NCBI GenBank assembly: GCA_044892505.1
Contig: CM097882.1
Location: 545,290,001 to 545,354,000, forward strand
Direction: 5' to 3'
Length of the DNA: 64,000 nt
From: Schmidtea nova
Taxonomy: Eukaryota
The notes under the pieces were generated by a model, which saw only the letters and a program-made list of their open reading frames with translations, had not been told where the DNA came from and did not search any database. Both the position numbers and the translations under genes were made by a program. Below, piece after piece: positions 41,808-62,534 of the stretch (positions are counted from its first letter, which is position 1; every line of letters starts with the position of its first letter).

Positions 41808-41934
41808 TGTTGAAAGTGTAATAGGTAAACCATTTTCTCTTCCTGAATTAACAATTAACAGTCGTCGAAAGTACGAGAATTGTTCAAATCAAAACAACCA
41901 ATTTATGTTAATAAATCATCTTGAATTTTAGAGA

Positions 41935-42525
41935 ATGTCAGTCAACTCAACCACTAATCAAGCAGAATTGGATAAAGCATGGAGGATAATTCGCAGCCTC
42001 GAAAAGGAAATGCTGCGCAAATCCGAAAAACTAAAAGAAGCCGATGGTATAATTTCCAACCTGAAGAAAAGCTGGTTTAATCCAGAACAAATGAAAGCAC
42101 AAATTATAAAAAATCAACGCTCACAGCGAGCCAACAGCGAGATACAAATGGAATTAGATTCTACAAAGATGGAGCTGAAAAAGTGTCTGAAATCTGTGAC
42201 GGCTTCATATCTAAATCAAGAGCTCCGACAGCTCATTCGACCAATCACTTATCAGCATTGGGCTGACGAGAAAGCAGGATGTTCGAAGGGAACGAACACC
42301 GAGGAACCCTCTCAGGTTCAAGCAACAACAGCAACCAGTACACCAAAGAACACGACAAATCCGGAAGTCAAGAAGAAAAAGAAGAGTAAGATGGGAGCGC
42401 GCCAGCGTCGCTGGAAGAAACAAGTGCTTCAGCAAATGGCACAACAATCGAAAGAAGTGCCCGAGATTGATCTAACAATGAACTTTGCAATATCGGATGA
42501 AGACATTACCAAATACTTTGAATAG
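41935..42525 (+). CDS. LTR-encoded orphan protein, 196 aa (coiled coil and basic NLS-like segment)
   Basis: Intact ORF with TTTTAG just upstream of the ATG, heptad-rich N-half, and KKKKKSKMGARQRRWKK. Confidence 0.65.
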   Translation: MSVNSTTNQAELDKAWRIIRSLEKEMLRKSEKLKEADGIISNLKKSWFNPEQMKAQIIKNQRSQRANSEIQMELDSTKMELKKCLKSVTASYLNQELRQLIRPITYQHWADEKAGCSKGTNTEEPSQVQATTATSTPKNTTNPEVKKKKKSKMGARQRRWKKQVLQQMAQQSKEVPEIDLTMNFAISDEDITKYFE

Positions 42526-43101
42526 AAATTCTGTGATTTAGTTATTTTCGCTTATTAAATAATTTTTGTTTTGTGTTTATTTTATTGTAAAGTATATGAA
42601 CTAAAGTATTTTATTAAAGGATTTCTAAATTAAGTTAAATGTAGATTATAATTAAAAGGTTGACCTGAACATAATAACAATAAGAGCATTAAAGAAATAA
42701 CATATTATAATTGATTAAAGATTATTTGTTGATATTGTAAAGAAGGGGCCGAAAGAAAAATTGAAAGTTGAAATATATTGTAAAGAAAAGGGGGCTAAAG
42801 AAATAATTGAAATGAAAGATAATGGATGCGGATAGATTAAAATTAAAGCGTAAGTCCTTCTATCGGCAGCGAGACGAACCCGTGAACATAAATGGGGAGT
42901 AGTTTTAGCAATAGAGCTCACCTGCCCATCATTGTTCAAACACCTTGCACATTTCCAACTCGATTATTACAGGGAAATGATCGAGGGTGCTCGTGTGATA
43001 TGTAAGCATTTTATGTAAGGTTTTGGATGGAGGAATCCCTAGAGCGTTTAGTTTAATTTTCTATTTTTGTTTTAACCCATCCGAACCGCCCAGCATAAAT
43101 T

Positions 43102-43119
43102 TGGGGGCTCAGCCGGGAT
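43102..43119 (+). promoter_or_regulatory. Primer-binding site, tRNA-Pro type
   Basis: TGGGGGCTCAGCCGGGAT matches the MLV tRNA-Pro PBS TGGGGGCTCGTCCGGGAT at 16/18 positions. Confidence 0.8.
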
Positions 43120-43483
43120 GAAAATGGTTTTTGTGCGAAAAATTGAATCCAATAATAACTAGGAGTTTTAAAGTACCCCTCAACCGAAAATTTAATTGAA
43201 TTTATGTTAGAAGTGAAAACAATATCAACAGAGAATTTTTGAAGAAACAATGAGTTAATAAATATAATAACAGACGATTAATAATTGACATTAAAATAAA
43301 ATAAATAAACATAAATAAATATGTCGGGACGACAATTTGACGAACCAGGTTTAACATCAGAAAACGAAATGTACCACTACTTTTGACCGACACAAATCAA
43401 ACAAATAGAGAAACAAGATATGGAAATTTTTATTTTTTAACAAATAAAGCAGCAAACATATTAACAATATCAATTATTTAGCA

Positions 43484-43945
43484 ATGAACGATAAATTAAA
43501 AGAAACAGAAGAATTCTTAAACACGGAAAACAAAACATACGATGAATTATGCGAGAAAATAAGTCGAATAAGAGAATCCGGATTCACAGAACCCATGACA
43601 CAAACCGAAGAGACAACAGAGCTGATAAAAATATTGGAAAGAGTAGACAAAATAGATATAACAACTAGATACAAGTGGTACCGAACGAGATTAGAAAATG
43701 CTGATGTAAACATAAAATGCAGACAGTTAGAACAACAATTAACTCCAACATACCACAAGTGGACGATACAAGGAACTGAGACAGCTAAGAAATTTAAACT
43801 GTGCTACATATGTCGAGGAAGAGAGAATAAAATCATGTTTTTACCATGTGGACATTTCCGGTTTTGTAGAATCTGTGCAGCCAATTGCGACAAATGCCCG
43901 ATGTGCAATCTCGAAATAGACGAAAGAATTATTGTGTATTTATAA
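43484..43945 (+). CDS. Coiled coil plus C-terminal IAP/MDM2-type RING protein, 153 aa
   Basis: CYICRGRENKIMFLPCGHFRFCRICAANCDKCPMCNLEIDERIIVYL* is the typical extreme C-terminal RING of IAP-like E3 ligases; no BIR domain seen. Confidence 0.85.
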   Translation: MNDKLKETEEFLNTENKTYDELCEKISRIRESGFTEPMTQTEETTELIKILERVDKIDITTRYKWYRTRLENADVNIKCRQLEQQLTPTYHKWTIQGTETAKKFKLCYICRGRENKIMFLPCGHFRFCRICAANCDKCPMCNLEIDERIIVYL

Positions 43946-43985
43946 TAAATTTTGAAATTGAATAATATGATTTGTGATAAAGGAT

Positions 43986-44160
43986 AATGAGAATTAATAT
44001 GATAATTCATAATGAGAATTAATATGAGAATTCATAATGAGAATTAATATGATAATTCATAATGAGAATTAATATGAGAATTCGTAATAAGAATTAATAT
44101 GAGAATTCATAATGAGAATTAATATGATAATTGATAATGAGAATTAATAATGAGAATTTA
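43986..44160. repeat. 25-bp tandem repeat, ~6.5 copies
   Basis: Unit AATGAGAATTAATATGA(T/G)AATTCAT. Confidence 0.9.
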
Positions 44161-45511: not shown

Positions 45512-46246
45512 AGTGATAGCAACAGAAGGAATATGAACCTTTGATTGCACTGTGGATAACAACATAAGGAATATGAACCTATGGTTGTAATTGTGGAAAT
45601 TTAGTAAATTTAGCAACCTAAGGAATTTGAACCCAGGTTTGCAATTATGTGAAATTAAATGACAACGAAAGGAATATGAACCTAGAGTTGAAGTCGTCGA
45701 CGACGTGAGAATAGTGAACATTAGAGTTTGAGTAATAAAAGTAAAGATGATTAAGAAAACTAGAGATACAGTATGCATACAAGTAGAAATAAGAATAGGA
45801 GAAATTAGAGTTGACTAGAAATAGTGAGAATAGTGAGTAATGATGAGAAATTAGAGATGACCAAGGAAAATTGGTAGAAATAGTGAGAATAATGAGTAAT
45901 GATGATACAATGAATAGTAATAAAATGATAAAACTGAGTCAGGAGAACTCAAGGGAATTAAAGCGTTTGAGCGACAAATTTATTTGGGAGACTGAGGGAA
46001 AAGTAATGAATTTATTTGATAACGATAGATAATTATTACGACCATATAGATAATTGTTACCAGTGAATAGATGATTTAAATAGACTTAAATAAAGGGGAA
46101 ACCGGGAATGGGGAAACAATGGAAACCCAATAATGAGGAATAAAAGCGCAACGATAACAATGATGTATCGTTGAAGTGACTTTTTAATTTAGATATACGG
46201 AACAGAACAAGTCAAACCAACCAACCAATCAATCATAATACGATAA

Positions 46247-48426
46247 CAGAGAAACAGAAAAATTGATAAATTAAAGAAAAGTAAACCGAGATCAAGAACA
46301 GCTAAAAATCAAGAAGTCAATAATTCACAGAGAAACAAATTGAGATCAAGAGCAGTTAGTGCTAGAACCCAAAAAGTTGATAAATCACAGAGAAGTAAAT
46401 CGAAACAAAGAGCAACCAGTGTTACAAAGAAAACAAATCCTAAAGGAAGTAAATCAAGAAGAGTAATAGTAGAAAAGTCAAAAATCGAAAACAGTAAATT
46501 AACAAAAACTAACGGAAGTGAAACAGAAGAAAGTGCAAGTGAATCCCACGATAATTATAATAATACGGAAGCATCAGATAACGAGTCAATAAACACAGAA
46601 GAAGTAGAAGCAGAAATTGATAATAATTCAAACGAAACGAATAACGAGCATACTAGTGAAACAAGAGGAAACGAGAGTAAAACGACACAAGACAGCGGAA
46701 TTGAAATGAACGAACATAAAGAAGAAATCAAAGATAAATTTACGGGAGAACCATTTAATGGAGATGCCAGCAAGTTAGAAACATTTTTAAAAGAATTTGG
46801 TATATTTGTAGAAGTATGTAAATGGAAACCAGAAACGATAAGAAGCAGAATTCAGTTATATTTAAAAGACAGTGCTATAGACTTATATTTAGAAGCTAAA
46901 AATTCAGATGATCAACTCGATAGTTGGGAAAAGATAAAGAATTTTTTCCAGCAAACGTTCGGAATAAATAAAGTATTAAATGAAGCATTTACAGAATTTT
47001 CAATGAGGAAACAAAAAGTTAATGAATCAAATGCAGTATATGCAAGTGAATTAAAGAAATTGGCTAAATTAGCATTTAATCAAAATAGTCCAATGAGTCC
47101 AGAATTAATGGCAGCAATTTTTGTGGGGGGATTGAGAAGACCCGATATAAGAGCACAAGTTGGATGCCAAGGTTGTAAAACAATAGATGAAGCGTTGGAA
47201 ATCGCCAACAGATTTGAATTACATATGATCGGAAGTGAAGGAAGAATTTACTTAGCAATGGATACGACACAAAATGAACAAGCAATAAAGATAAATAACC
47301 ATATTCCGAATTCACAGCAATTAAATCGACCACCACCTCAAAGGAGAAATGAAGGAAACAAAATACAAAATTACAGAAACCAAAATAATTATAGTACGCA
47401 GGACAGACAAAGCAATGTCAAACCTGTGGAAAGTCAGGACATTGGCAACAAGAATGTTTCGCGAATTTAAATTGTAAAAAGTGTGGAATAAAAGGACATG
47501 CGGAAAATAGATGTTACCAAAGATCATGTTATAACTGTGGACAACCAGGTCATATGGCGAAGAATTGCCAGCAACAAAACAACCAACAAAGGAATTGGTC
47601 GAACAACGGAAATCGACAAAATTATGTGAATCAACAGAATAACGGAAACCGTCAGAATTATGGAAATCAACAGAGTAGTTATAATCAGAACAAAAATGCC
47701 AACAAAGAAATACTTTTATTACAAGAAGTTCAAAGATTGACAGAGTTAATAAATAATACACCGAGAGGAAATCAACAAACGAATCAACAACAAATGAATA
47801 TGATGAGAAAAGTGGAAAGTGAAAATGAACGATTAAATCGAGAAAGTCAAGCACGACATGCTCAAGAATGGGCAAGAATACAAAGAGAAGACGAACAGAA
47901 ACGACAAGAAAGAGAACGACAACCATTGAGAATTAATATGATGAGAGCAACGAATCAAACAAGAGATAACAAAGAAGATATTGAACCAGAAACAAACCAG
48001 ATAAACCCAAATCCGGAAGATGAAGAAAACCAAAAAGAAATAGTACAAGAAAACGAAGAAGTTATTAAACAAAAAAGGATGTTGGTAGTCATGCCAAACG
48101 ATCATGTATTTCGATTTGAATATGATGAAAAAGAAGAAGTAGAAGTATTAATTAATAAAATAAACAAGACGATTCCGGGAATGACGAAACTACCCCGAGA
48201 AGCATTTTTACAGACAGAAGACGAAGCAGCAATAAAATTGAAACCAACCGACATATGGAAAGATTTAGGAGTACCAATGAATAAAATGAAAGTCACAGTT
48301 ATCCAAGAAATAGAAGAAAATAACGATGAAGAGAAATCAAAACCAGTAACAAAAGTCAAAAGTAGAGCATTGAAGATATTTGAAGAGAGAATCAAACAAA
48401 GAAGAGCAATGGAAATAGAAAAATGA
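46247..48426 (+). CDS. Gag (capsid-like domain, 3 CCHC knuckles, Q/N-rich region, Ubl-like domain); -1 frame change at ~47395-47415
   Basis: EPFNGDASKLETFL...YLKDSAIDLY...RKQKVNES...FVGGL is retrotransposon gag. The next frame gives CQTCGKSGHWQQEC, CKKCGIKGHAENRC and CYNCGQPGHMAKNC. The frame is open from 46247; first ATG at 46706. Confidence 0.85.
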
Positions 48427-49843
48427 AGAGGCCAAATAAAAGAACCAGAAAACAATGACAAAAAAGAAGAGATACCACCAAAAAATGTACCAGATAAAGT
48501 AGAACAGACAGCACATATAAACATGTTAAGAAACTTAACTAGAGAATTTTCAGATGTAGAAAGTGACAGTGATGTCAGTAGTTTAGCAGGAGATATGCTA
48601 AAAGAACCAGAAAATGAAGACAACCAGATAGAAGTAACAAAGACGCCAGAGAATATACAAATAAAAGAAGATGAAATTCAGAAACTATTAGTTAATGCGT
48701 TAGAAGTGATTTATAACGAAGAATTTATTGATAAGAAGCGATATCGAAAATTTATAAGAGCAGTATTCCGAACGAACTATAAAGAACGGTTACAAAGTCG
48801 TGAAGTAGAGATATTATCAGGATACGTCGTCAAACTATTAGAAGAACCACTCCACGAATACATAATTTTAATAGAAATAAACGAATGTTCACCAAGAATT
48901 TTATCGATGGGTAGAAGACAGATTGGGAAGTTCGTATAAAAACAAATTTATATATTCAGGAAACGAACTTGTAAGACGAGCAACGCATTTGGTAGAAACA
49001 GGCATATGGCCAGGAGAGATAACAACATTATCAATAGGTGACAATAAGAAAGAGGAGAATCTACAAGAAATCGCAAAGGAAGCAAATATGTGTTTTGAGA
49101 TGAGAATTAAACCTCAGTTAGTGGAAAGGAAAGAAAGAATTCTTAGAGAAAATTTAAATTCACTAATAGAACAAATTATTCAACAAATCGACAAGAATAG
49201 AGAAGAGTTAACGAAAACTGAATATGAGAAATTAAAACAATGCATCGAAAATATACGAGATACCAGCCATACGAGATATTCGCCGTACAAGACTTGGAAA
49301 GTGATCGCGAAAATGGGAAAAGCGATGTTTAAACGAGGAGAAATAGGAGATTTAAAAATCAAAGTGAAATTACCAAACGAGGACACAAAAGAAATTGAAG
49401 TAATCGCGGATTGCACAATAGAAGAATTAGTTGATGTTATCAATGAAACTTTATTACAACGGGAAAAAGAAGACGAATTGGTAGACGATATCATCATAAA
49501 ATATAATGAACACGTACTAGGGGATCATGATGAGAGACGATTATATAAAATTGGCATATGGGATAATTACCAAACAATTCATGTTATCAGAATGGATGAT
49601 ACACCAAGAGAAACACCAAAAGACGAAAAAAGGAGACAAGAACGTCGAAGAGAAGCGATGCACAAACTAAGACAAATAATAGAGATTTATCGAAGATGAC
49701 AGATACAGCCAGAATGGGAAAATGTATTAGGAGAATTAAACTTCAACGAACGCCGATTAACACCAGTAGAGAAACACTGGGATGTTAAAGAGAAATGCTG
49801 GAAAGCAAAAGGAGGTATATATGAAGAGGAATTTAGACCAGAA
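48427..49843 (+). CDS. Continuation of the Gag-extension polyprotein, broken by TGA 48424-26, a +1 shift at ~48881-48936 and TGA 49697-99; contains a ubiquitin-like domain
   Basis: Frames stay open directly past both TGAs. LKIKVKLPNEDTKEIEV...TIEELVDVINE...TIHVIR resembles the ubiquitin fold. Confidence 0.65.
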
Positions 49844-52800
49844 ATGGAAGACAAATATGAACCAGAAATTGGAAGAGTTTGTATGGTGATAAGAAAAGTC
49901 ATGCCAACAGATTTAGATGGACCAGAAACCGCAGCAATATGGTTAGAAACGCAAAGACGAAAAGCTGACGAACTTATTGAATTACTAAAAGGAAATGTAC
50001 AAGGAAAAAGGCGAACGATCAAAGGATTAGCCGAATTTTTTGTAGCAGGCGGTGAAGATATAATCAGTTTAAGAAAAGTAGCAAAGGCAGTAACAGAATA
50101 TAAACGAGTTAACGAGTGGTGCCCAGAACAGTTAGACAATGTAATCAAGAAATGGAGAAACCAAGAAAACTCCCAAGAACCACCGCAGAAAATACATTTA
50201 AGGATAATATATCCAGATCGAGAAAAAGAAGAGCTTTGGGTAAGATTAACTGAAAAGATTCGAGATGTTAAAAAGAGATTAAAATATGAACCACCATTTC
50301 ATCTACAACATCAAGGACGATCACTAGAAAACGATATGGAAATTTGGATAACGCCAGCACAGTTAGAACTGGCGAATACGTTAACAGTAGACGCAATAGC
50401 AAATCAACCATTAAAACTTAAAGAGAAAAGAGTAAAAGAAAGTGGAGATACTCAGAATCTAAAGAAGACGATGCAGATAAAGCCAGGAACAAGTGCAATA
50501 CAGTATGAAACATCATCAATAAAAATCCAAGAAAGAACTCAACCACAACCATACGATACAGAAGAAATATTAACAGACAGCGATGATATGCTAGAAGAAT
50601 TAGCAAAATTGACAAAAGAAAAAGGCAATAATATTTTCGAAAGAGTACAAGAGTTACCCACAACGTCAAAAGCAATCAATACCCAAGATGAAGTTGAGCA
50701 AGAAATAGAGATAGAAGAAGTGAACGAAATCTCTGAAGAAGAAGCAAGAGGAGCAAATACAGAAAACGAACGATTAACACAAGAAATGGAAAAATGGTGG
50801 GAACAGAGAAATAACGAACCAAGAGATGTTACAGAAGAAACTGGACGAGAAACCAGATTGATTGAAACAGGTACAACAATGGATAAACGACCTAGAGGTA
50901 GACCAAAGACAGATCCAGCCAATGTAATCAACAAAACCAAAGAGGAAAGGAGACAAGAGAAATGGGAAGTATGTTTAAAGAAACTCAACAAAATAGCAGA
51001 AGCAAAAGACCAGGAAATAACGCAAAAATGTCAAGGTGAAGGATGGATATCAAAAACACTAATGGAAATATTGGCGATAATTGATCCAGAATTGAAAAAA
51101 TGGTGGAGAATAAACGAAATAAGCGACAAGGCTAAAGCATTACATAGCGCAATCGCACCAATCTTACCAGAACTGATAAAAGAGAAGACAAAATCAAGCC
51201 ATTTAGATTGGCAAGGGACCACAACGTTGATAAAGAGGTTAACTGAAGATGCAGAAAATGATAATAAATATGTGATAGCAATTGCGTATACAATTTATAA
51301 CTTATTAACATTGAGTAGAGGTAATCCAAAATCTACGGCATTAGAGAAATATATCAAAAATACGGCAAATATCATAGCAAAAGAAATAGAACCATACGTC
51401 ATCAGTAAAGGAGGATGGGAAACATTTGCTAAAACGAATCAAAGAAACAGTCAAGCAAAGAATATGAAAAAGAAATTTGAAGAAATTTTAGGAGAATTAG
51501 AAAAAGAAAAGTCAGGAACAGGAGGTGGAAAATCTTCACTAAACCTGAATTCAATCATAATGATGATATTAATATGGCTAATTAGCGTTGAAGGAGCAAC
51601 GGCGTTCGAAGTATTTGATTGCGACCAGATGGCATTAGGAGAAAAATATTCATTGAGAGGAACAGAACAATGCAAAGATGCAACTCCAACAGAATTAAAA
51701 GTATTACATAGTAAACAAATATATCACGTATATCAGGAAGCCGACTTAATAAAGACAACAGTTAATGAGTGTAAAATATATAAAACAAGATTTGCTTTTT
51801 ATTGTGGACATCGCCACTACTCTGCAATCGTAATGCCAGGAACGGAAAGAGAAGCGATAATGTTACAAGGAGAAGATTGCAATAAATTGTTTAAACATGG
51901 AGAAGTCGAAACAAGAGATCGAATAAAGATAAGAGGAAAAGCTGGAGTAATACTACAACAAACATATTATGTAGCAGGAGCTATCACAGGAGGAGAAGGT
52001 TACTGTCAAGGAGCAACATATCCAATATTTGGAGTACCAGCAACTAACATGGTAGTAATAGACACGTATACGGTAGAATTAAAAGCGTATGAAGCATATT
52101 TTGACCCAGCAACAGGAGAAATGAAGACGTTATCAATGTGCAAAATTGAAGCCAGTACTTGTCAAACCGGTATGTCAACTTTAACGTATAGAGCAAGAGC
52201 AAATGAATGCCAATTACAATTATTAAAGGAAGCAGAGTTCGACGAGGTACAAGGAAAAATCTTTCAGGAAGAAGATGATGATGAAGTAGCAAGAGGAAAA
52301 CGTCTACAGGAGACAGTAAAAGGAGAGAAACCGTTCACCACTAAAGTACAAGAAAAAGAGGTAAGGATGAGAGAGACGCCAACAGTATTGGTTACATCAA
52401 ACGCAAATATAGGAATGAGGTTTGTAAAAGGAAAACCGGCATTAAAATGTGGTGTTTCTATGTTAGAAACAAATTACCCAGGTATTTATGTATCAAGACA
52501 AGCAGCACCAAATGCAAAACCCAAGATAGACACTACAGACATCAAATTGCACGTATATTTAAATAACAAATTGGATTTTTTATTTCATAAAGGTCAAGCA
52601 TCAATGGAGAAAATATACTACGATCTCATTAACAACGATTGTATATTGAACAGAGAAATATTAAAGACGAAATTAGCAGTAGCAATCACAAACCCGGACA
52701 GTGCTATGCCATTATTACCACTTAACGAAGGTCATTTTGGAAGAGTAGTTGGAGAAGTTATGTATGTATATATATGCCAAAAGACACAAGCAAACCTAGC

Positions 52801-55800
52801 AACAACGACCAGAATACGACAAGGACAATGTACCAACGAATTGGAAATTGAATATAAAGGGAAAATAAGATATGTACAACCAGTGACAAGAATCATTAAC
52901 CCAGTTAGTTTTGAACCAAACCCTTTCAATTGTAGTAATGCATACGGACCGTTATATCAGAAACCAGACGGAAATTGGGTCATGTTTCCGTCAAGATCAG
53001 AAGTACAACCACCTAGAGAATTTGAATTGATGCAACTTTCAAAAGGACGAAAATTTTCCAATATAGATGTAAATAATGGAGGAATTTACAGTGCAAAAGA
53101 TCTCGAAGCAGCACGACAAAATATATTATTTCCAGCTAGGAGAGAAGCAGTATTATCTAGCATTGTAACAATAACAGGAGGAACAAGTTATCAAGGAGGA
53201 CCAAATTATGAATTATTACTGTCACCAGCACACTTTAGGAAAGCAACAGAAAATATGATGAAAGCAATGTGGGGACGATTTTTAATTTTCGGACAAATGA
53301 TGGCCGGAATACTAGGTGTAATTTTAATCATACAAATAATACGAGTGATAATCACACAAATGCTAGCATGCTTTGATATTTATAAAAGAGAAAAGAAAAT
53401 TAATTGGAAATTAATAGCAGGATTTCTACCATTTTTAGCAAAAACGATGGTGTTACATGGTCACTCCAAAGATATTCATAGAATAAAAAGATTATTAAAA
53501 ATACTGGCAAAAATGAAAGGAACAGATGAAGACGTGGGAAGAAAATTCAAAAAGATAATGGCAGATGAACAAGCAAGACTACAATTAAAAAGAGAAAGAA
53601 AAGGATTATGGGAAAGAATAAGAGGAGATAAAACTCAAGACGATTCCAGTGATGACGATGATAACAATGACGACTGTGAAGGAGGGCAAAGGTACGGAAA
53701 CCAAGCACCGCAATATAGCGACAAGAATCCAGCAGAAGCATGGAAATGTCACGCACCTCCACCAACAATGTATCAAGAACCATTACAGGTATCAGGACAC
53801 AGAGCAATGCAAATGATGCCAATGACAACTTTATATCCAATTATACCAGAAGATTATAAACTAAGGCGATGTAGAAGTATGGATCCGCAAGACGATTCAC
53901 TCACAATTGCAGTCATGTCATCAAATACAGGACCAGTATTAACTACAACTATAGAAATAAATGGAAAAGAAATAGAAGCGATGATAGATACAGGAGCAAA
54001 TATTTCGGCGATAGATATTAAATGGATACCGCAAGAACAAAGACAAGAAATTGAAAGAACAAATGTTCATGTAATAGCATGTAGCAAAGAGATAGTCGAA
54101 GTTGCAGGAAGATGGTGGGTGAAAATACGACACCAAAACATAGAAATCGAAACCTATGTAGCAGTAATACCAGCTTTAAGTGTACCATGTATAATCGGAA
54201 CGGATTTAATGCCAACACTATTTAAAGAAATAATCATCGACCTTGGAACAATGAGATTAAAGGACAGAACAGAGAAAATATGTGCCATGAAAACAAAAGT
54301 AATAAACTCGAAACAAATAATGATACCGGAAGAAAGAATCATGACGAGATCACAAACCATCAGAATAAATATGCTCAGAGCGGAAGAAATTAACACAGAT
54401 AGTCAAGTAGACAGTGAGAAAATCGATGTTGACAAAGAAATCATACGAAAAGCCAAAGAAATAAACGAAAGATGGGAAATCAGACAAGGAAAAGACGTAT
54501 TATGGGATATACGACAAATAATTAGTGATTACGCACGAGGATGCCCAACCAAACCAATCATAATAGAATTACTAAAGAAAATACCAGAGATACTCGTATT
54601 ACAAGATACAGGAGGTGCAACTGCACTACACAATGCCATAAGTTGGGGTAAAACGGAAAAGGTAAAAGAATTTTTGAAAATAGCAAAAGAAACGAATCAA
54701 AATCTAGACATTGTAAATCGAGAATTAGAAACGCCAATGATGACAGCAACACTAAGCTTAGCAGATAAAGAAATAGTAGATATGCTGATAAACGCAGAAT
54801 TCAACTGGACAGCTCGTGATAGAAGAGGAAATACAGTTTTGAATCATGCAATAATGAGTGAAAATCAAATGATACTAAAACATATAACAACCAACCTCAC
54901 ATGGGAAATCGATGAATTAATCAAAGGAGAAATTATGAAGGAAGCGATTCGGAAAGGAAACACTAAAACAATATGGAAACTAATACAATGGAAATGGCCG
55001 GATAATAAAACATGGGTATTAGATATAAACAAAGAATTTAGTGAAGGACAAAACGCGCTATTGAGATACTTATTAGAGTTTACGTGCGATCAGAGAACAA
55101 TGTTAGCACTAATGAATAGAGGAAACATAAAAATTAGTAAGAACGAAGAAGAATACAAACTAGAAGTCGAAAAGGAAGCGTTATTCAGAAAAATTTGGGT
55201 ATGGTGTCAAAAACAAATACGCAAAGACATAAGCTACAAAAATCTAAATGATTTCCAAGAAAAGTATAAGATAATAATAAAAGAATACAAGAAGCTAGTG
55301 GAGATATTAAACGATCCAGAAAAATTTAATCAAGCGATAAATCAGAAAGAAGAAAGTAAAAGGATACTCACACCATTATTCAATGCGAAGATAGATTACC
55401 AAGAAAGATTGGATGCAATACACAAAAAAGCAAAGGAACTATTACCAGAATTCAAAGATACTAAATACGCCTTAGAAATACTTGGCGCGATAGTAGAAAA
55501 GGTACACGCGTATGCGAAAGGAATATATAACGGAAACGATATAATAATTATAAAAAGAGAAATGCCAGTTGCATTTTTACTAACTAAAGAAAGAATAATG
55601 CCGATTCATAGAGCATTGAGAGCAGGAAAAGACAGTAAAGTAATCGAAATCGCAAGATTAATGCATCAATGTGGATGTGATATGAATATGATAGACGAAA
55701 AAGGAGACACCCTCATGGTATACGCAGCAAGAGCAAAAACAAAAATCAAAGTATTAGAAGAGTTATATAAAGCAGGTGCAGGATTAATCGGAAAAACTAG

Positions 55801-58579
55801 TAAAGACAACTCAATATTAGACGTGACATTATTAGGTCCAAACTGGGAAATGTTGAATTTCATTAAAACGATAACAAACCAGGAAGAGATAGACTATTTG
55901 ACAGAAACCGTAAAAGGACCAAGCGTATTGACAATGATGCAAAACATCAAATTGACAGAAGAAGTACTAAACTGGAAAATACCAAATACAAATAAACCAG
56001 CATTTAAAGTTAACAAGTTTATGGAGAAAAATCGAAATTGGTGTATCCAAAGCGCACTAATAACTTATATATGGCCCGAAATTGTAGAAATTTTCATGAG
56101 AAGAGAAGACCTGAGATTTACAAACAAGCCCAAAGAAACGGAAAAGATGGTTAAATGGAAAGAATTGATGAAAACACACCTTCAAAGTTGGATAAAAGCC
56201 AAGAAAGAAATTATACAGTATCAGTTAGACAACAAAAAGATACCCGAAGATATAGAATTCCAAGAATTCGAAGCAAGTAACTTAACATCACTATATTATG
56301 CAAAACTAATAGAAACAAGTAATGTCGAGGACGACATTTTTAACGAGCCAGGGAGAGATAATAATACTGACAATGATGATGACGATGAAGAAAACAAGGA
56401 CGACGAGAGAAATAATGACGATGATAATAATAAAAACAATGACGACGAGAGAAATAAAGACGATGATGATGAAAACAATCACGGAAATCCAGATAACCAC
56501 GAACAAACCAACAAAGAAGACGAGAATCAAGAGGGAAATACAAAGAAACAAGAATCCAAAGAACAAAGAGAAGACAACCCTAAAAACAATCATGAAAAGA
56601 AAGGAACAAGTTACAGAAGGAATCCATTATTCAGACCAGAAGTATTAATGTTCGCAATAATCATAACACTTATGGGACAATGTGAAGCAACGAAACAAGA
56701 GATATCAGTAGAAATGGAAGTACCAATACAAAAAGCATCAACACAAATAATGAATTCAAAGGAAATTGAGCAAGTATGTTGGGTCAAAGAGAACGAAATT
56801 CTCGGAGATAACAACCTATTACGATGTATAATCCCAAACCCCGATCGAAAAACTATAATAATAGACGAGATGGATATGGAAACATGGTACAGAATATGTA
56901 CAATCAGAAAACCCAAAGACGAAAAATCACACAAAACAGTTACATGCCAAGTATACAAGACACCCAAAGTCCGATACGAGTTCACCAATGGAATAGACCT
57001 TCCAGGACCATTTTATTTTAGAATAACAAGAGCACCAGCATCAAGAAAAGTCTTACAACCACCAAGAACCAAGATAACAACACCAAGTATAAGGAATACA
57101 ACGGTTAAACCAGAACCAAAAAGACGAACGAAACAAACCACAAGAGTAATCTACAATTCCAAGTTATTATGTATAGCACTTATTATGACAATACTGAAGC
57201 GATTAGAAGAAGGAATAGAAATGGATACAATGACATTAATAGACATGGAAGAAACACAAATGACAAATCAAAAATGTTGGTTTAGAAACGATGAAAAATT
57301 AGAATTAAAGGAATCAAGAGAAATTCAGAAATTGGAAGCGAGTAAAACGAACAAAGTAATCAAGATAATAAAGATAAAAACGGACAGAATTCATAAACTA
57401 TGCTTATTGGAAAAAGAGAGAAACAAGAAAGGAATAACCAATTGTAAAACATTCCAAGCAGGAAAAATAATAACGTTTGCAAGAAAAATAGGAAAAGGAA
57501 ACAAACAGAATTTCCAGAAATTAACCATAACGTTAGAAATAACGGGAATAGAACAAAACGTAAACGGAGTATGCTGGAGAAAATACGAGAAAGAAACGAA
57601 TAATCATAAATCATCACAATGTCAAACAGTCAGAGGAACAACTGCAGTACAAATAAAAAGCTTAGAAAGAAATCAAACGTATGAAATATGCCTAGTAAAG
57701 GAAAATGATCAAATAACGAAAGAAGATTTAGAATGCAGAATATACAAAGCACCGAACAGAGTAAAAACCAGTAAAACAATACGAAAGAATAAAAGACAAC
57801 AAAAACCGAAGTATACCACTACCGAAAGTCAAACAGAACCAGAGAGAAAAACCTCAGCAACACTTATACTTTGGAAATTAGATGACAAAACAGTGGAAAT
57901 ATGTTGGTCAATAATCAAGAAATACAAAGAAAGACAACCACAACAATGCGAAAAGATGAATAAAGAAGAGGAGATCAGAATTCAGAACCTACAATTGGAC
58001 AAACAATACGAAATATGCGCAATAGAAAAGGCAGATAAATTTGGAAACCAACAAGAAAAATGTGGAAACTACTATACACCGACAAATACAACGATCAAAG
58101 GAAGAATCAAGAAACTAACATTCGGAGAATTGAATCAAACAACGAAACAAATGGAAAACGAGGAAACAATAATAGATTCTTATGCCAAATGGAAACCAGA
58201 AAAAGTAATCCATGAAGTCAAAAGGAAACAACAAGAACGAAAACAATTGGAACTCAAATTAAAAGGACAATATGGACCAATGATCAATCAAAGCAAATTC
58301 ACCCAAATCAATGTTAACAAGCAAGGAAGAGAACTAATTGGAGTAGGAATACTGGCAGTATGTGCACCAGTAATAATAATACTCTCAATAATATGGCTAT
58401 GGGACATAATAAAAAAGAAACCAACCAGACAATGGCCAGATATAAAGATTATGAATTGTAAAATCAAGATACCAGAAGAAGTAAAGAAAGAATTCCAAAG
58501 AAGAACCAAAGGCAAAGAATTTTGGAAGCAGATCGAAGACGAGGAGCGACACGATGAAAAAGCAGTGATGATAGTATAG
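49844..58579 (+). CDS. 2911-aa multidomain polyprotein: Ubl-like, AT-hook, Bcl-2-like, class III envelope, retropepsin, ankyrins, FN3-like membrane protein
   Basis: Uninterrupted 8.7-kb ORF; domain motifs are listed as separate features. Confidence 0.92.
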   Translation: MEDKYEPEIGRVCMVIRKVMPTDLDGPETAAIWLETQRRKADELIELLKGNVQGKRRTIKGLAEFFVAGGEDIISLRKVAKAVTEYKRVNEWCPEQLDNVIKKWRNQENSQEPPQKIHLRIIYPDREKEELWVRLTEKIRDVKKRLKYEPPFHLQHQGRSLENDMEIWITPAQLELANTLTVDAIANQPLKLKEKRVKESGDTQNLKKTMQIKPGTSAIQYETSSIKIQERTQPQPYDTEEILTDSDDMLEELAKLTKEKGNNIFERVQELPTTSKAINTQDEVEQEIEIEEVNEISEEEARGANTENERLTQEMEKWWEQRNNEPRDVTEETGRETRLIETGTTMDKRPRGRPKTDPANVINKTKEERRQEKWEVCLKKLNKIAEAKDQEITQKCQGEGWISKTLMEILAIIDPELKKWWRINEISDKAKALHSAIAPILPELIKEKTKSSHLDWQGTTTLIKRLTEDAENDNKYVIAIAYTIYNLLTLSRGNPKSTALEKYIKNTANIIAKEIEPYVISKGGWETFAKTNQRNSQAKNMKKKFEEILGELEKEKSGTGGGKSSLNLNSIIMMILIWLISVEGATAFEVFDCDQMALGEKYSLRGTEQCKDATPTELKVLHSKQIYHVYQEADLIKTTVNECKIYKTRFAFYCGHRHYSAIVMPGTEREAIMLQGEDCNKLFKHGEVETRDRIKIRGKAGVILQQTYYVAGAITGGEGYCQGATYPIFGVPATNMVVIDTYTVELKAYEAYFDPATGEMKTLSMCKIEASTCQTGMSTLTYRARANECQLQLLKEAEFDEVQGKIFQEEDDDEVARGKRLQETVKGEKPFTTKVQEKEVRMRETPTVLVTSNANIGMRFVKGKPALKCGVSMLETNYPGIYVSRQAAPNAKPKIDTTDIKLHVYLNNKLDFLFHKGQASMEKIYYDLINNDCILNREILKTKLAVAITNPDSAMPLLPLNEGHFGRVVGEVMYVYICQKTQANLATTTRIRQGQCTNELEIEYKGKIRYVQPVTRIINPVSFEPNPFNCSNAYGPLYQKPDGNWVMFPSRSEVQPPREFELMQLSKGRKFSNIDVNNGGIYSAKDLEAARQNILFPARREAVLSSIVTITGGTSYQGGPNYELLLSPAHFRKATENMMKAMWGRFLIFGQMMAGILGVILIIQIIRVIITQMLACFDIYKREKKINWKLIAGFLPFLAKTMVLHGHSKDIHRIKRLLKILAKMKGTDEDVGRKFKKIMADEQARLQLKRERKGLWERIRGDKTQDDSSDDDDNNDDCEGGQRYGNQAPQYSDKNPAEAWKCHAPPPTMYQEPLQVSGHRAMQMMPMTTLYPIIPEDYKLRRCRSMDPQDDSLTIAVMSSNTGPVLTTTIEINGKEIEAMIDTGANISAIDIKWIPQEQRQEIERTNVHVIACSKEIVEVAGRWWVKIRHQNIEIETYVAVIPALSVPCIIGTDLMPTLFKEIIIDLGTMRLKDRTEKICAMKTKVINSKQIMIPEERIMTRSQTIRINMLRAEEINTDSQVDSEKIDVDKEIIRKAKEINERWEIRQGKDVLWDIRQIISDYARGCPTKPIIIELLKKIPEILVLQDTGGATALHNAISWGKTEKVKEFLKIAKETNQNLDIVNRELETPMMTATLSLADKEIVDMLINAEFNWTARDRRGNTVLNHAIMSENQMILKHITTNLTWEIDELIKGEIMKEAIRKGNTKTIWKLIQWKWPDNKTWVLDINKEFSEGQNALLRYLLEFTCDQRTMLALMNRGNIKISKNEEEYKLEVEKEALFRKIWVWCQKQIRKDISYKNLNDFQEKYKIIIKEYKKLVEILNDPEKFNQAINQKEESKRILTPLFNAKIDYQERLDAIHKKAKELLPEFKDTKYALEILGAIVEKVHAYAKGIYNGNDIIIIKREMPVAFLLTKERIMPIHRALRAGKDSKVIEIARLMHQCGCDMNMIDEKGDTLMVYAARAKTKIKVLEELYKAGAGLIGKTSKDNSILDVTLLGPNWEMLNFIKTITNQEEIDYLTETVKGPSVLTMMQNIKLTEEVLNWKIPNTNKPAFKVNKFMEKNRNWCIQSALITYIWPEIVEIFMRREDLRFTNKPKETEKMVKWKELMKTHLQSWIKAKKEIIQYQLDNKKIPEDIEFQEFEASNLTSLYYAKLIETSNVEDDIFNEPGRDNNTDNDDDDEENKDDERNNDDDNNKNNDDERNKDDDDENNHGNPDNHEQTNKEDENQEGNTKKQESKEQREDNPKNNHEKKGTSYRRNPLFRPEVLMFAIIITLMGQCEATKQEISVEMEVPIQKASTQIMNSKEIEQVCWVKENEILGDNNLLRCIIPNPDRKTIIIDEMDMETWYRICTIRKPKDEKSHKTVTCQVYKTPKVRYEFTNGIDLPGPFYFRITRAPASRKVLQPPRTKITTPSIRNTTVKPEPKRRTKQTTRVIYNSKLLCIALIMTILKRLEEGIEMDTMTLIDMEETQMTNQKCWFRNDEKLELKESREIQKLEASKTNKVIKIIKIKTDRIHKLCLLEKERNKKGITNCKTFQAGKIITFARKIGKGNKQNFQKLTITLEITGIEQNVNGVCWRKYEKETNNHKSSQCQTVRGTTAVQIKSLERNQTYEICLVKENDQITKEDLECRIYKAPNRVKTSKTIRKNKRQQKPKYTTTESQTEPERKTSATLILWKLDDKTVEICWSIIKKYKERQPQQCEKMNKEEEIRIQNLQLDKQYEICAIEKADKFGNQQEKCGNYYTPTNTTIKGRIKKLTFGELNQTTKQMENEETIIDSYAKWKPEKVIHEVKRKQQERKQLELKLKGQYGPMINQSKFTQINVNKQGRELIGVGILAVCAPVIIILSIIWLWDIIKKKPTRQWPDIKIMNCKIKIPEEVKKEFQRRTKGKEFWKQIEDEERHDEKAVMIV
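50990..51430 (+). other. Bcl-2-like domain within the polyprotein
   Basis: BH1-like LDWQGTTTLIK (cf. NWGRIVAL) and BH2-like YVISKGGWETF (cf. WI...GGW..F) at the usual spacing. Confidence 0.65.
51548..53460 (+). other. Envelope glycoprotein, chuvirus G / herpes gB-like (class III) type
   Basis: Internal signal SIIMMILIWLISVEGATA|FEVFDC, YSL...C, CKIYKTRFAFYCGHRHYS, YCQGATY, NNKLDFLF, C-terminal W..F.IFGQMMAGILGVILII TM and a second hydrophobic stretch. Confidence 0.8.
53930..54260 (+). other. Retroviral-type aspartic protease
   Basis: IEINGKEIEAMIDTGANISAI (DTG at 53987-95) and PCIIGTDL. Confidence 0.9.
54600..55870 (+). other. Two ankyrin-repeat clusters (~54600-54900 and ~55595-55870)
   Basis: DTGGATALHNAISWG, NRELETPMMTA, DRRGNTVLNHAI; PIHRAL, DEKGDTLMVYAA, KDNSILDVT. 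Confidence 0.8.
56639..58410 (+). other. Signal-like segment, four FN3-like repeats and a C-terminal TM
   Basis: Four units of xCW...I..L.....Y.IC.......C..Y.T, then TM LIGVGILAVCAPVIIILSIIWLW. Confidence 0.6.
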
Positions 58580-58701
58580 AGGGTGGGATATGACTGTAAA
58601 TAATATTGTAAATTACAAAGCATTACCGTATATAGTATGGGTATTAGTATTATAGAGTAGATAAAAAGAGAAAAGAGAAAAATAATAATGTATTTTAGAA
58701 A

Positions 58702-59037
58702 ATGAATGTACAAGGAGAAACAACCGAAATGACTTTGACTATGCGATGGAAAGCACAATGTGAAACGTTAGTTCGATCAATCAATGCACTACAGAATCAA
58801 TTGGTAGAGAAGCAAAATATATTAGCAGATTGTTACAACAATATTTTTGAACAGTTACATAAAATAGAAGAGCAACAGAGAATAATAACAGAACTGACAA
58901 GAGAGAATCAGAGATTGAGACAAACAGTGGAAATGAATCAACTATCAAGAAGAGAAGAATCAGAAGGTCAATGGCTAGATTGGGTAATAAATGGATTAGA
59001 GAATGGTATGGAACCAGATTCAACAAGCGAACCATAG
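58702..59037 (+). CDS. Orphan coiled-coil protein, 111 aa
   Basis: Intact ORF in the element's sense orientation, heptad pattern, TTTTAG before the ATG. Confidence 0.6.
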   Translation: MNVQGETTEMTLTMRWKAQCETLVRSINALQNQLVEKQNILADCYNNIFEQLHKIEEQQRIITELTRENQRLRQTVEMNQLSRREESEGQWLDWVINGLENGMEPDSTSEP

Positions 59038-59134
59038 TCAAATTGTAGCGGAAAATTGTATATATGTAAAAATAAAACTCTAGAGAAATCAAAAAACAAA
59101 GAACAAATCAATGTATGTATATATTATTGTAGAA

Positions 59135-60490
59135 ATGGATAAAGAGGAACGAGCAGTCGAGATTTTGAGAGCAGCAAACAGAAAGTGGAACAAGAGATTT
59201 GTATGTGGATATTGTAATAATTTATTACGGAAACCAAAGCAAACCACCTGTGGATGTAGATTATGTACTAGATGTGTACAAGTGTTAGAGTTGAAAAGAA
59301 TAACAGAATGTCCAGAATGTAAAGAAGGACAAATAGTGTTAGACGAAACAAGACCAGATAGAGCAACTCAGAGAGAAATCATGAGCATACTAATTGAATG
59401 TATAAATCCACCGTGCATATGGCAAGGACAAATCAGCGAAATTGAAAATCATATAGGAAATTGTGAAGAAAAGAGAAGCGAATGTGAAAAGTGTAAAGAA
59501 ACGATAATTTTAAAAGACAAAGAAAAACACAGAGATGAATGCAAAGAGGAAGAAATCGCATGTGAATATTGCGAAATTCGAGAAACAAGGAGAAAAATTG
59601 AAGAGGAACACATCAATATAAAAGAAGAAAAAATATGCGAACAGTATGTAGGAGTGTGCCCAAACAAATGTGAAATTACCGAAGAAGTGAAATTACGAGA
59701 ACATTGGGAAAAGTGTACAGAAATACCAAGAGAATGTCCTTACAACAGATATGGATGCAAAGAAAAGAAATCTCAACAAAATATGAAACAACATTTAGAA
59801 ACAGAAGCAATCAATCATATTGAAATGACAGACAGAACAATTCAGAAATTAGAAAAAGAAGTGGAATCTCATAAAATAATGATGAACCTATTATTAGAAA
59901 CGAGAGAACAATTTGAATTAACCCGAGAAAAGATGGAAAAGAAAATAATAGCCATCAAGGAATTAGCAAAAGGAATGAAAGTGCAATATAACAAGTTAAT
60001 ACAAGAAATTGATGAGAAAAAAGATTTACCAATAGCACCTTATGTGTGGAAAATAACGGATTTCCGAAATAAATTGGAAGATGCACGAAGCTTCAAGAAA
60101 ACTGCGGTAATAAGCCCACCATTTTACTTATGGAAAAACGGGGCTAAAGTGAGATTGAAAGTATATCCAAACGGAGATGGGACAAGTATTGGAAAACACG
60201 TATCGATATTTTTTGCGTTTTGCAAAGGAGAATATGACTATTTAATCGATTGGCCGATAGGAGTAGGAGTAATGATAAAAATCAGGGGTTTAAACGAAAC
60301 CATAGAAAAGAGATTCACGACAGAAAAAGGAGCAGTTATGAGTAACAGACCAACAGAAGAATGTGGATTAGCAAGTGGAGAACCACACTTTGTATTACAA
60401 AGCAAGATATGGGGATTATTGTATGAGGACACCTTATACATAGAAATGGAAAGGAACGAGAAGGCAGATAGAAAAGGATGGTTGGCGTAG
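59135..60490 (+). CDS. Full-length TRAF-like protein (RING, TRAF zinc fingers, coiled coil, MATH), 451 aa from ATG 59135, intronless
   Basis: CGYC..LLRKPKQTTCGCRLCTRC...CPEC; C...C.W.G...EIENH...C; CPYNRYGC...MKQHL; MATH YVWKITDF...SPPFY...YPNGDG...HVSIFF...GEYD..I.WP. Confidence 0.92.
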   Translation: MDKEERAVEILRAANRKWNKRFVCGYCNNLLRKPKQTTCGCRLCTRCVQVLELKRITECPECKEGQIVLDETRPDRATQREIMSILIECINPPCIWQGQISEIENHIGNCEEKRSECEKCKETIILKDKEKHRDECKEEEIACEYCEIRETRRKIEEEHINIKEEKICEQYVGVCPNKCEITEEVKLREHWEKCTEIPRECPYNRYGCKEKKSQQNMKQHLETEAINHIEMTDRTIQKLEKEVESHKIMMNLLLETREQFELTREKMEKKIIAIKELAKGMKVQYNKLIQEIDEKKDLPIAPYVWKITDFRNKLEDARSFKKTAVISPPFYLWKNGAKVRLKVYPNGDGTSIGKHVSIFFAFCKGEYDYLIDWPIGVGVMIKIRGLNETIEKRFTTEKGAVMSNRPTEECGLASGEPHFVLQSKIWGLLYEDTLYIEMERNEKADRKGWLA

Positions 60491-60595
60491 CAAGAGAAAA
60501 TGATCGTGTAAATAAACTGTACAAAACAATATAAAATGATAAATAAACAAAAATAATAAAAGTAGCCTGATTGAAAATATTTGTAATTATAGAAA

Positions 60596-61699
60596 ATGGG
60601 AAACGTCGAAATCAGTTTACAAGAAGTAACCGAACATCAAGATGAAGTTATTTGTGAGCTTTTAGAACAAATTGAAAGTTGGATCCACGCATATTACCAC
60701 AAACAAAAAGAAGTAGAAAGACAAGCCGAACAAATAACAGAAGCCAAAAGATTAAAGCAATTAAGTCAAGATAAAATAGACGAACTATATGAATTATTGG
60801 AGAAACAAAAAGAATATTATAAAAAGATGATGAAAGAACGACGAGAAGAAAAAGAGCGAGAACGAACAGAAATGGAACGGAAAATGTACTCCATTACCGA
60901 GCAAGCAAGATATTGGAAAAAAGAAGCGAAAGAATCTTATACGAAAGCAAGAGAAATAATCGAAAGAACGGCGTACAGCGATGATTGGAAATTATTTGAA
61001 GAAATCGATAAATTAAAAGAGGAATTAGAACAGAAAACCTATCAGGAAATATCGAGCAAAAAATGGAATAAAAAGAGACAACAATTTATCAGAGAGCAAG
61101 CAGGAAAAATTAAACAACTTATGCACCAGATTGAAAGATCGGAAAGAGAATTGTATTTCAGTAAACAACAATCAGATGCAAACCTCAGAGCAGGGATGCA
61201 GAAAGAGGAAGATATGAAGCGCGATATTAATGGTTATCAAGGAGTAATCACTCAAAAGAAGATAGAATTAAAGAAAACTAAAGAAAGATTAGAAGAAGCA
61301 AAACAAAGCTATGAAGAAAATTTATTAAAATTAGAAGAAGCAAAACAAAGCTATGAGGAAAATTTATTAAATTTAACCAAAGAAAATGAAGAGTTGAAAC
61401 AAAAATTGATACAAAAATTAACACCACCAAAAGAGACAGATATCACCAAAGCAGTAATAAAAATGATGGAAGAGGAAGAGAAAAACAATAAAATAACAGA
61501 ATTAGAAAAACAGATCGAAGCATTAACAGAACAATCAAACTATTTAGAATATCTGTTGGATGAAGAAATCCAATTATCACACTTCTATCGAGACGAAGTA
61601 ACAATGTGGAGAAACACGATAGTGTGGTTACCACCCCCTACAAACCAAGTGGAACCTCAAGATGAAGGTTTTCACGAACCCAATGAGTCGTTAGTATAA
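60596..61699 (+). CDS. Orphan long coiled-coil protein, 367 aa
   Basis: Intact E/K/Q-rich ORF with a 14-aa internal duplication (LEEAKQSYEENLL). Confidence 0.7.
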   Translation: MGNVEISLQEVTEHQDEVICELLEQIESWIHAYYHKQKEVERQAEQITEAKRLKQLSQDKIDELYELLEKQKEYYKKMMKERREEKERERTEMERKMYSITEQARYWKKEAKESYTKAREIIERTAYSDDWKLFEEIDKLKEELEQKTYQEISSKKWNKKRQQFIREQAGKIKQLMHQIERSERELYFSKQQSDANLRAGMQKEEDMKRDINGYQGVITQKKIELKKTKERLEEAKQSYEENLLKLEEAKQSYEENLLNLTKENEELKQKLIQKLTPPKETDITKAVIKMMEEEEKNNKITELEKQIEALTEQSNYLEYLLDEEIQLSHFYRDEVTMWRNTIVWLPPPTNQVEPQDEGFHEPNESLV

Positions 61700-61774
61700 A
61701 AGAAGTGCGAAAATTAGTTGTAAATATCTGTAAAATAACCATGTCAAACTGTATTGACAAATTTGTAAAGTGAA

Positions 61775-62338
61775 ATGAAGAAGCTCACAATACTGATAAT
61801 CCTAAATGTAATCGAAATCACCCAACAAAGAGAAGACCGTGCGATATCAAAAGAAAATCTACAAGTCTTACCCGAGAAAATCTATAAAGAAATAGATGAT
61901 CTATTAAAAGAAACAGTCAAAGAAATCTCTCAAATTCAATTGTCAACAGCACCTAACCCAGTAGCAACGCAACAAACCCTGTGTAAAATCAATAACAAAT
62001 TAGAGAAGATTCGAAAAACCCTAAAAGAAAGTAAAGAAACTATAAAGAGTTTACATCGAGCAGAAATTCAATACCAAGAGAGATGGATCGTTGCGATCAT
62101 AATCGTGTTAACAATTAGTACAACAACCTGCGCAATTACCATTCTCATCGCAGTATACAGAATAAAGATCTTAAAACAAAAACAATCAATCATCAATCAA
62201 ACAACAGCACATGATGACAATGCCCGAAGACGAATGAGAAATCAGCTCAACAGAATACGAACCCAATACGAGTTACCAGTAATTCCACAGAACCAGTCCA
62301 ATCCAGTGCGAGTTATGAACTATTTATATAAACCATAA
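61775..62338 (+). CDS. Orphan predicted membrane protein, 187 aa (signal, coiled coil, TM)
   Basis: MKKLTILIILNVIEI signal-like start, coiled coil, and TM WIVAIIIVLTISTTTCAITILIAVY. Confidence 0.65.
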   Translation: MKKLTILIILNVIEITQQREDRAISKENLQVLPEKIYKEIDDLLKETVKEISQIQLSTAPNPVATQQTLCKINNKLEKIRKTLKESKETIKSLHRAEIQYQERWIVAIIIVLTISTTTCAITILIAVYRIKILKQKQSIINQTTAHDDNARRRMRNQLNRIRTQYELPVIPQNQSNPVRVMNYLYKP

Positions 62339-62500: not shown

Positions 62501-62534
62501 ATTGCGGGACGCAATTTTAGGGGTCCCCGAGTGA
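62501..62534 (+). promoter_or_regulatory. Putative plus-strand priming region before the 3' LTR
   Basis: ATTGCG-GGA-CGCAAT hairpin then TTTAGGGGTCCCCGAGTGA just before TGTTGG; a weak purine tract. Confidence 0.35.

Follow-up and report, generated by a model that had tools for sequence, protein, structure and literature searches.

A Burro-like giant Gypsy retrotransposon of Schmidtea nova with predicted splicing of its accessory genes from one LTR leader

The window analyzed here, a 64,000-nucleotide (nt) stretch of Schmidtea nova DNA (assembly GCA_044892505.1, contig CM097882.1, positions 545,290,001 to 545,354,000, forward strand), contains a Burro-like long terminal repeat (LTR) retrotransposon of ~25 kb, at ~40304–65327, in which a polyprotein is accompanied by six accessory open reading frames (ORFs). 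An acceptor-like AG stands before each accessory ORF, all six within the element, and a donor-like site lies near the predicted 5′ end of its RNA. From these features we consider it probable that the accessory ORFs are expressed by alternative cis-splicing from one LTR leader, in the manner of complex retroviruses. The prediction is firmest for the ORF inside the LTR, for which such splicing seems very likely; for the four ORFs at the 3′ end it is more guarded, if still on the favorable side.

The sequence-only reading that preceded this analysis had placed an AG 2–4 nt before each of six accessory ATGs, and all six are where it put them. The AGs stand directly before predicted first exon bases 41932, 43482, 58699, 59133, 60593, and 61771, with offsets to the ATG of 3, 2, 3, 2, 3, and 4 nt. 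Among 560 other plus-strand ATGs of the element, 163 (29%) have an AG ending 2–4 nt upstream, a background against which six of six gives p = 6e-4. A stricter acceptor rule, written post hoc after seeing the sites (YAG, Y being a pyrimidine, within 0–8 nt; at least five pyrimidines in the preceding 10 nt; no other AG in 12 nt), picks out five of the six accessory ATGs and 36 of the 560 others (6.4%; p = 6e-6). On the plus strand, the AGs lie at 41930..41931 for the LTR-internal ORF (TTTTAG, offset 3); at 43480..43481 for the RING-finger ORF (offset 2, and 3 in sister families B and G); at 58697..58698 for ORF 58702 (offset 3, as in B and G); at 59131..59132 for the TRAF-like ORF (offset 2, and 1, 3, 3, and 2 in families B, G, C, and D); and at 60591..60592 for ORF 60596 (offset 3, and 2 in B, G, C, and D). 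The acceptor-like character claimed for the sites is borne out in these five, which have YAG; the sixth, at 61769..61770 before ORF 61775 (offset 4), is the weakest and has AAG instead. Its AAAG and a branch-point-like TATTGAC upstream of 61769 are both aligned in B, G, and the family of the window copy (family A). One of the ATGs that had been chosen, 59135, is the second of the TRAF-like frame, whose longest form starts at 59111; the choice is backed by the sister families, whose ORFs start at the position of 59135, and only 33 of 38 copies retain the ATG at 59111. A seventh acceptor-like AG lies upstream of gag at 46191..46192 (+), in 29 of 29 family-A copies and also in family B; this AG, the donor at 40791/40792, and the position of ORF 41935 inside the LTR are additions to the sequence-only reading.

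Within family A (40 copies listed of 549 candidates in genome G000), the six AGs are kept, in 5′ to 3′ order, in 26 of 26 copies displayed (30 located), 29 of 29, 37 of 37, 38 of 39, 40 of 40, and 38 of 38. In seven other elements, YAG lies within 0–8 nt of 21 of 24 accessory starts, the three misses being ORF1 of the family-B LTR (offset 15), the family-G ortholog of ORF 61775 (AAG/GAG), and an ORF whose called start is an ATG farther upstream. The accessory proteins of A are 42–70% identical to those of B and G, yet YAG before the orthologous starts persists, and the distance from AG to ATG drifts between families, as in the TRAF orthologs (offsets 2/1/3/3/2). Because the offsets shift between orthologs, the conserved feature is the AG itself rather than a set Kozak sequence, which is the behavior expected of a 3′ splice site. 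In a sample of 70 LTRs picked only by promoter motif, YAG lies within 0–8 nt of the start in 38 of 43 homologs of LTR ORF1, 35 of them at offset 0 (9 more have no nearby ATG), and in 26 of 29 homologs of LTR ORF2, the type of ORF 41935 (3 more have no ATG). For offset-0 starts, leader ends might supply a purine at −3, as 22 of 23 contexts have one; but positions −2 (21), −4 (19), and −5 (18) are purine-rich too, and the rule that picked the donors had itself selected purines. Taken together, the chance test, the conservation with shifting offset, and the single genomic copy with a join at an AG of this kind make the assignment of the six AGs as splice acceptors, proposed in the sequence-only reading, well supported at the level of sequence.

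The putative donor follows the TATA-like box of the LTR promoter. This box, at 40686..40693 (+), has CCAAT-like sites upstream and lies in a 20-nt motif that occurs 1649 times in genome G000, against 0 for a reversed control. The predicted leader exon, 40700..40791 (+; start site predicted), is hypervariable: its length and sequence differ between copies that are ~95% identical in their bodies. It ends at a predicted major splice donor, AG/GTATGA (40792..40797, +; junction 40791/40792). The donor lies 85–153 nt 3′ of the TATA box, and AG/GTAT ends the leader in 37 of 37 family-A LTRs with a located TATA box, of 40 examined; a donor rule written after the data had been seen matches 56 of 70 LTRs of other families, against 2, 2, and 1 of 70 in three controls. 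The AATAAA at 40861..40866 (+), 69 nt after the donor, is a candidate LTR polyadenylation [poly(A)] signal, and in each of the 37 family-A LTRs with a located TATA box A(A/T)TAAA follows the donor by 56–80 nt. A second donor-like site, GC/GTAAGT, lies near the 3′ end of the LTR at 42850..42855 (+); families B and G have its GTAAG too, and within family A all 38 copies of 38 do. In each of the three families this GC/GTAAG also sits 31–34 nt after an AG, which would make room for a second leader exon. The predicted LTR intron holds, at 40900–41290, repeated stem-loops with UGCAAU/UGUAAU loops and a folding z-score of −7, a candidate element for export, packaging, or splice control; no Rfam match was found in 40000–64000 at E 0.1.

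One such junction appears to have been fossilized in DNA. In the family-B element G000:C2:349648416-349675111, both LTRs join the last base of the leader to a point 4 nt before the ATG of LTR ORF1; the element was found with a probe for family-B leader ends lacking the following GT, whose two matches are the two LTRs of this one element. Its LTRs are 99.96% identical and it has a 4-bp target duplication, from which it follows that the join was present in the reverse-transcribed RNA or was made during that step. Against AG-type B LTRs, the missing segment is 798–801 nt and runs from GT to AG. TTTTAG stands at the 3′ boundary in 8 of 61 unjoined B LTRs and TTTTGG in the other 53; in five B-related LTRs TAG occupies the equivalent position, suggesting that AG is ancestral. 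In our judgement, the joined LTRs likely come from cis-splicing of the leader to the acceptor of LTR ORF1. Of the mechanisms that the sequence-only reading had named, splicing from a single LTR leader is thus the one favored, by a conserved donor and by a sister copy with a donor-to-acceptor join inside the LTR.

Several observations weigh against this reading. Splicing is predicted here from DNA sequence, and the one DNA join is a single event, in sister family B, at an LTR ORF that family A is without. A 4-nt TTAG microhomology at the join permits a deletion by template switching, the join skips a TTCAG 11 nt upstream, and the GG at its 3′ boundary is the majority form among B LTRs (53 of 61). 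In a parentage comparison that took in 22 of ~30 B elements, a 300-nt stretch of the joined copy is matched without difference by 2 of 4 AG copies and by 2 of 18 GG copies (Fisher test on one single-nucleotide polymorphism, p = 0.077), and over 6.3 kb the copies nearest to it are GG; descent of the joined element from an AG-bearing parent is conjectural. No joined copy of family A was found with junction probes that cover part of the leader types (long leaders and the frequent TATATA variant of the promoter escape one of them), none was found with a junction probe for G-type leaders, and no donor-joined copy was found for any 3′ ORF. Among the 70 sampled LTRs, the single large early deletion (L178) does not begin at the donor, nor does that of the deleted copy C1; unrelated deletions therefore do occur. 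The spacers are conserved as a whole, both in family A (1.9% minor alleles overall) and between families (A, B, and G agree at 258 of 429 columns), which makes conservation of the AGs within them weak evidence by itself; orthologous AG sites share descent and do not count as independent trials. Finally, reaching 58699–61771 requires skipping at least three acceptors over at least 18 kb. Contigs of four runs from one study, of unspecified kind, which cover all bins of 55401–65400, weigh neither way: 0 of the 15 joints listed, of 68, fall at the donor or an acceptor.

In the cis-splicing model, transcription would start at one promoter in the 5′ LTR, and each spliced RNA would have the short non-coding leader, up to 40791/40792, attached at one of six or seven acceptors. 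The same donor would reach 43482 and the four 3′ acceptors 18–21 kb away, and the unspliced RNA would serve as genome. Where a donor lies in cis upstream of an acceptor, it is described as winning over the spliced leader (SL), and a tapeworm LTR is one example (PMC4558846). The mRNAs would be nested and would end in the 3′ LTR, so that upstream ORFs would carry more Pumilio-type sites, UGUANAUA in each spacer acting as the Pumilio site that tunes them. The family itself, which lacks pol, may be mobilized in trans by pol-bearing sister families of the same layout.

The spacers on which the Pumilio-type sites lie conform to their earlier description as AT-rich, ~75–120 nt long, and set between same-strand ORFs: they measure 122, 97, 105, and 75 nt and are 73–80% AT. 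AATAAA, which had been pointed out in at least two of them, is indeed present in two of the four, but not above chance; its 4 occurrences compare with a shuffle mean of 3.0, a count reached in 1724 of 5000 shuffles. The family-B spacers have 1 occurrence, which is not enriched, and those of family G have 8, which is marginal (119 of 5000 shuffles); by the same kind of shuffling, five planarian signal hexamers listed in PMC5068929 are not enriched in the spacers of A, B, or G. By comparison, all 12 spacers of A, B, and G carry UGUANAUA 15–22 nt after the stop and a second UGUA 8–13 nt beyond it, and the counts of UGUANAUA in the three families (5, 7, and 7) far exceed the shuffle means of 0.13–0.15. 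The window copies are at 58595..58602 (+, spacer 1) and at 59057, 59116, 60507, and 61719. Among 37–40 family-A copies only the N position of UGUANAUA varies, bar one allele; variation of the octamer is confined to base five (A, T, or G), where UGUANAUA leaves the base free, and the octamer is biased in strand (15 on plus, 2 on minus). By the consensus in PMC11602169, the motif in every spacer is a predicted Pumilio-type element on the mRNA strand, 3′ of the stop codon. Twin UGUA also marks poly(A) sites regulated by CFIm in mammals (PMC10476966); we rank this assignment below a Pumilio element because planarian poly(A) signals are reported to be without upstream UGUA, with CFIm59/68 undetected (PMC5068929). 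Four more UGUANAUA sites cluster at 41531–41800, within the predicted LTR intron and shortly before the acceptor at 41932.

The sequence-only reading had put its emphasis on an operon resolved by SL trans-splicing. In a hybrid form of this reading, the LTR-proximal ORFs would be cis-spliced, and the four 3′ ORFs would be cleaved apart in the spacers and given the host SL at the AGs. Planarians do have SL trans-splicing (PMC10899757), the 75–122-nt spacers match flatworm operon spacing (a peak near 100 bp in Macrostomum, PMC8629364; a median of 99 bp in S. mansoni, PMC12582326), twin UGUA follows each upstream stop in all 12 spacers, and very long introns that skip several acceptors would be avoided. 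Two conserved donor-like sites upstream in cis argue the other way, although spacer cleavage, and only spacer cleavage, would free the downstream RNA from the donor. The signal hexamers give no sign of such cleavage, since neither AATAAA in the spacers of A and B nor the set of five planarian hexamers in any of the three families exceeds chance, and the reported lack of UGUA and of detectable CFIm59/68 (PMC5068929) counts against the twin motif as a cleavage signal. Flatworm SLs, moreover, end in ATG (PMC12582326), which at offsets of 1, 2, and 4 would fall out of frame; the frame also changes between orthologs, and TAA directly follows the AG in two elements. These comparisons lend the reading no direct support, and we regard SL addition to the four 3′ ORFs as rather unlikely. 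Widened to any true operon within a retroelement, cut in its spacers, trans-spliced with either the host SL or an element-made leader and placed under Pumilio-type control, the idea gains a shade in plausibility and is still doubtful.

The remaining alternatives are far less probable. A promoter of its own in the spacer for each 3′ ORF, with or without SL addition at the AG, would draw on doublets of TGTAAATA, read as a forkhead-type DNA site, which lie 50–100 nt upstream of each 3′ ATG and are conserved in A, B, and G. Foamy viruses offer a precedent for an internal promoter (PMC7828637); however, the strand bias and fifth-base-only variation of the octamer fit an RNA element, no TATA-like box was seen in the spacers, and a promoter alone leaves the conserved AG unexplained, making this reading very improbable. 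We give as little credence to a leader made by the element and supplied in trans, in which short transcripts of many LTRs would donate their leader exon to the acceptors. The A(A/T)TAAA that follows the donor by 56–80 nt in 37 of 37 LTRs and the 1649 promoter motifs in the genome would suit it, short solo-LTR transcripts are known for a tapeworm TRIM (PMC4558846), and a hypervariable leader would make the chimeras detectable; but an ordinary R region with a major donor explains the same layout, the Rfam search of 40000–64000 was negative, and the fossil join is simplest as a cis event. Least probable of all, the AGs might simply reflect a strand rich in purines and a start context rich in A, the ORFs being translated by reinitiation or shunting from unspliced RNA. 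An AG 2–4 nt upstream of 29% of the element's ATGs and the shortness of the spacers speak for it; yet it is hard to reconcile with the strict acceptor rule (five of six against 6.4%), with the conserved donor and the fossil join, or with YAG at offset 0 in 35 LTR ORF1 starts, which places a pyrimidine at −3, a poor context unless the RNA is spliced.

The structure of the element is that of an LTR retrotransposon with a partly lost polyprotein. The 5′ LTR (40304..43095, +; ~2.79 kb) has its first 19 bases under N, its start being placed from the 3′ LTR, which occupies 62535..64000 (+) in the window and extends past the window end to ~65327; the two are 99.46% identical over 2772 nt and lie 22,231 nt apart. 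A purine-tract-like stretch at 62515 (+) lies just before the 3′ LTR. A stretch at 43102..43119 (+) is primer-binding-site-like in sequence and in its place after the LTR end, with a putative likeness to tRNA-Pro; no tRNA gene was found in a tRNA gene search. The polyprotein (46706..58579, +) runs from gag through CCHC knuckles, fusion glycoprotein, and aspartyl protease to ankyrin repeats, and is split into five ORFs in the window copy, with longer frames in other copies. Pfam matches are PF03732 (just below the cut-off), PF00098, PF24664 (E = 6e-68), PF00077, and ankyrins; there are two CCHC knuckles, and the glycoprotein, of the Monjiviricetes fusion type, is in frame before the protease. 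Reverse transcriptase, RNase H, and integrase, all encoded by the family-B polyprotein, are absent: residues 2592–3594 of the latter are unmatched, leaving a gap near 54330 across which four of four other family-A copies are collinear. Family A has thereby lost ~1,000 residues and kept gag, glycoprotein, protease, and all accessory ORFs; with ~90 copies at ≥87% protein identity among 150 scored, it is a high-copy family that lost pol and retained every accessory ORF and signal, suggesting that the accessory genes are selected. Sister families B, C, D, G, and H in the same genome have the same layout. By its described features Burro matches the element, which appears to be a non-autonomous derivative of a Burro-like giant Gypsy LTR retrotransposon.

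The accessory ORFs, all on the plus strand, include two with recognizable domains. The RING-finger ORF (43484..43945, 153 amino acids) matches PF13920 (E = 2.8e-11) and had no match at E 1e-8 in a protein search; the TRAF-like ORF (59135..60490, 451 amino acids from 59135) has zf-TRAF and MATH domains (PF02176; PF22486, E = 2.7e-20) and is 24–28% identical to three vertebrate TRAFs in a protein search. The ORF inside the LTR (41935..42525, 196 amino acids) and the ORF at 58702..59037 (111 amino acids) match no Pfam family above the cut-off, and the ORF at 60596..61699 (367 amino acids) matches no Pfam family and has four distant partial protein matches, to its C terminus. The last ORF (61775..62338, 187 amino acids) has a hydrophobic stretch. 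The protein searches with the RING-finger ORF, the TRAF-like ORF, and ORF 60596 returned no planarian relatives, Pfam found MATH, zf-TRAF, and RING but no BIR domain in the window element, and a BCL2-like motif spotted by eye has no Pfam match.

Between the RING-finger ORF and gag lie tandem arrays at 44363–45585 (71-nt units) and 43950–44174 (25-nt units). Further on, 46245–46705 holds ~150 ATG-free open codons before the first gag methionine in the 29 measured family-A copies and in family B. The frame shows protein-level likeness between A and B, with AAA ATT G near its start in both, a candidate non-AUG start for gag unless an unseen exon supplies the ATG. A gag start from an SL-borne AUG at 46193 was considered and rejected: the frame fits, but TAA follows 18 codons on in 29 of 29 family-A copies and both family-B copies.

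Burro (GYPSM1) of dugesiid planarians is described as a giant element with one polyprotein (gag, CCHC, in-frame fusion glycoprotein, protease, ankyrins) and MATH/TRAF and RING accessory functions (PMC6431247), and the window element shares the giant size, the polyprotein layout, and the MATH/TRAF and RING functions. Set against that description, the window family differs in lacking reverse transcriptase, RNase H, and integrase, in its size (25 kb against >30 kb), in having a TRAF ORF among its 3′ accessory genes and an ORF inside the LTR, and in a RING protein with no detected BIR. The section on Burro in PMC6431247 makes no mention of splicing, and in the text of PMC8532177, where Burro1 expression is reported, the string "splic" is absent. 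Our literature search turned up no account of how Burro transcripts are spliced; one may exist in Grohme 2018, Lee 2026, Rossi 2014, or their supplements.

Beyond planarians, the predicted organization has parallels in retroviruses. In foamy viruses, the donor lies upstream of the LTR poly(A) signal. They use one major donor near the RNA 5′ end and several acceptors, with pol and env made from spliced RNAs (PMC7828637), and, at the sequence level, the window element shares with complex retroviruses and foamy viruses this arrangement of one 5′ donor and several acceptors. Unlike foamy viruses, it is of Gypsy type, has env inside the polyprotein and ORFs within a long U5-like region, and carries six or seven acceptors, each 0–8 nt before its own ATG, with predicted introns of up to 21 kb. 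Errantiviruses such as gypsy and ZAM express env from a spliced mRNA. Expression of downstream ORFs from spliced subgenomic RNA, predicted for the window element, is common to both, whereas its spliced ORFs are a battery of host-like signaling proteins and uncharacterized proteins and not env. Three 16-kb env-gypsy elements (E, F, and I) are a one-ORF version, with TTTTAG before the 3′ ORF. Loci L179–L186 and L194–L197 represent ~16-kb Gypsy families with env in the polyprotein, one 3′ ORF behind TTTTAG, and a donor-like site ~100 nt before gag. With the SL operons of flatworms and nematodes, the window element shares same-strand genes ~100 nt apart and an acceptor just before each start; it differs from them in its upstream cis donor, in the want of poly(A)-hexamer enrichment, and in having no frame link to an SL AUG.

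If cis-splicing from the LTR leader is correct, an element of Gypsy type has independently reached a complex-retrovirus organization, with one leader serving six or seven acceptors, and the spliced-env habit of errantiviruses is extended to a gene battery; if trans-splicing is correct, a retroelement runs a trans-spliced gene battery. The accessory genes of Burro elements include some related to apoptosis and ubiquitin, and protection of planarian stem cells is reported for the RING/BIR product of Burro1 (as cited in PMC13465017). For this system the analysis provides coordinates of predicted donors and acceptors, a likely fossil of one junction in genomic DNA, and a motif that points to Pumilio.

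Elsewhere in the window, an intronless ORF at 21655–23739 (−) encodes a 694-residue ABC-2 type transporter, and hAT-like transposase pieces lie at 35417–37066 (−) and 10317–11042 (+). A 432-nt inverted pair occupies 3632–4063 and 19785–20216.

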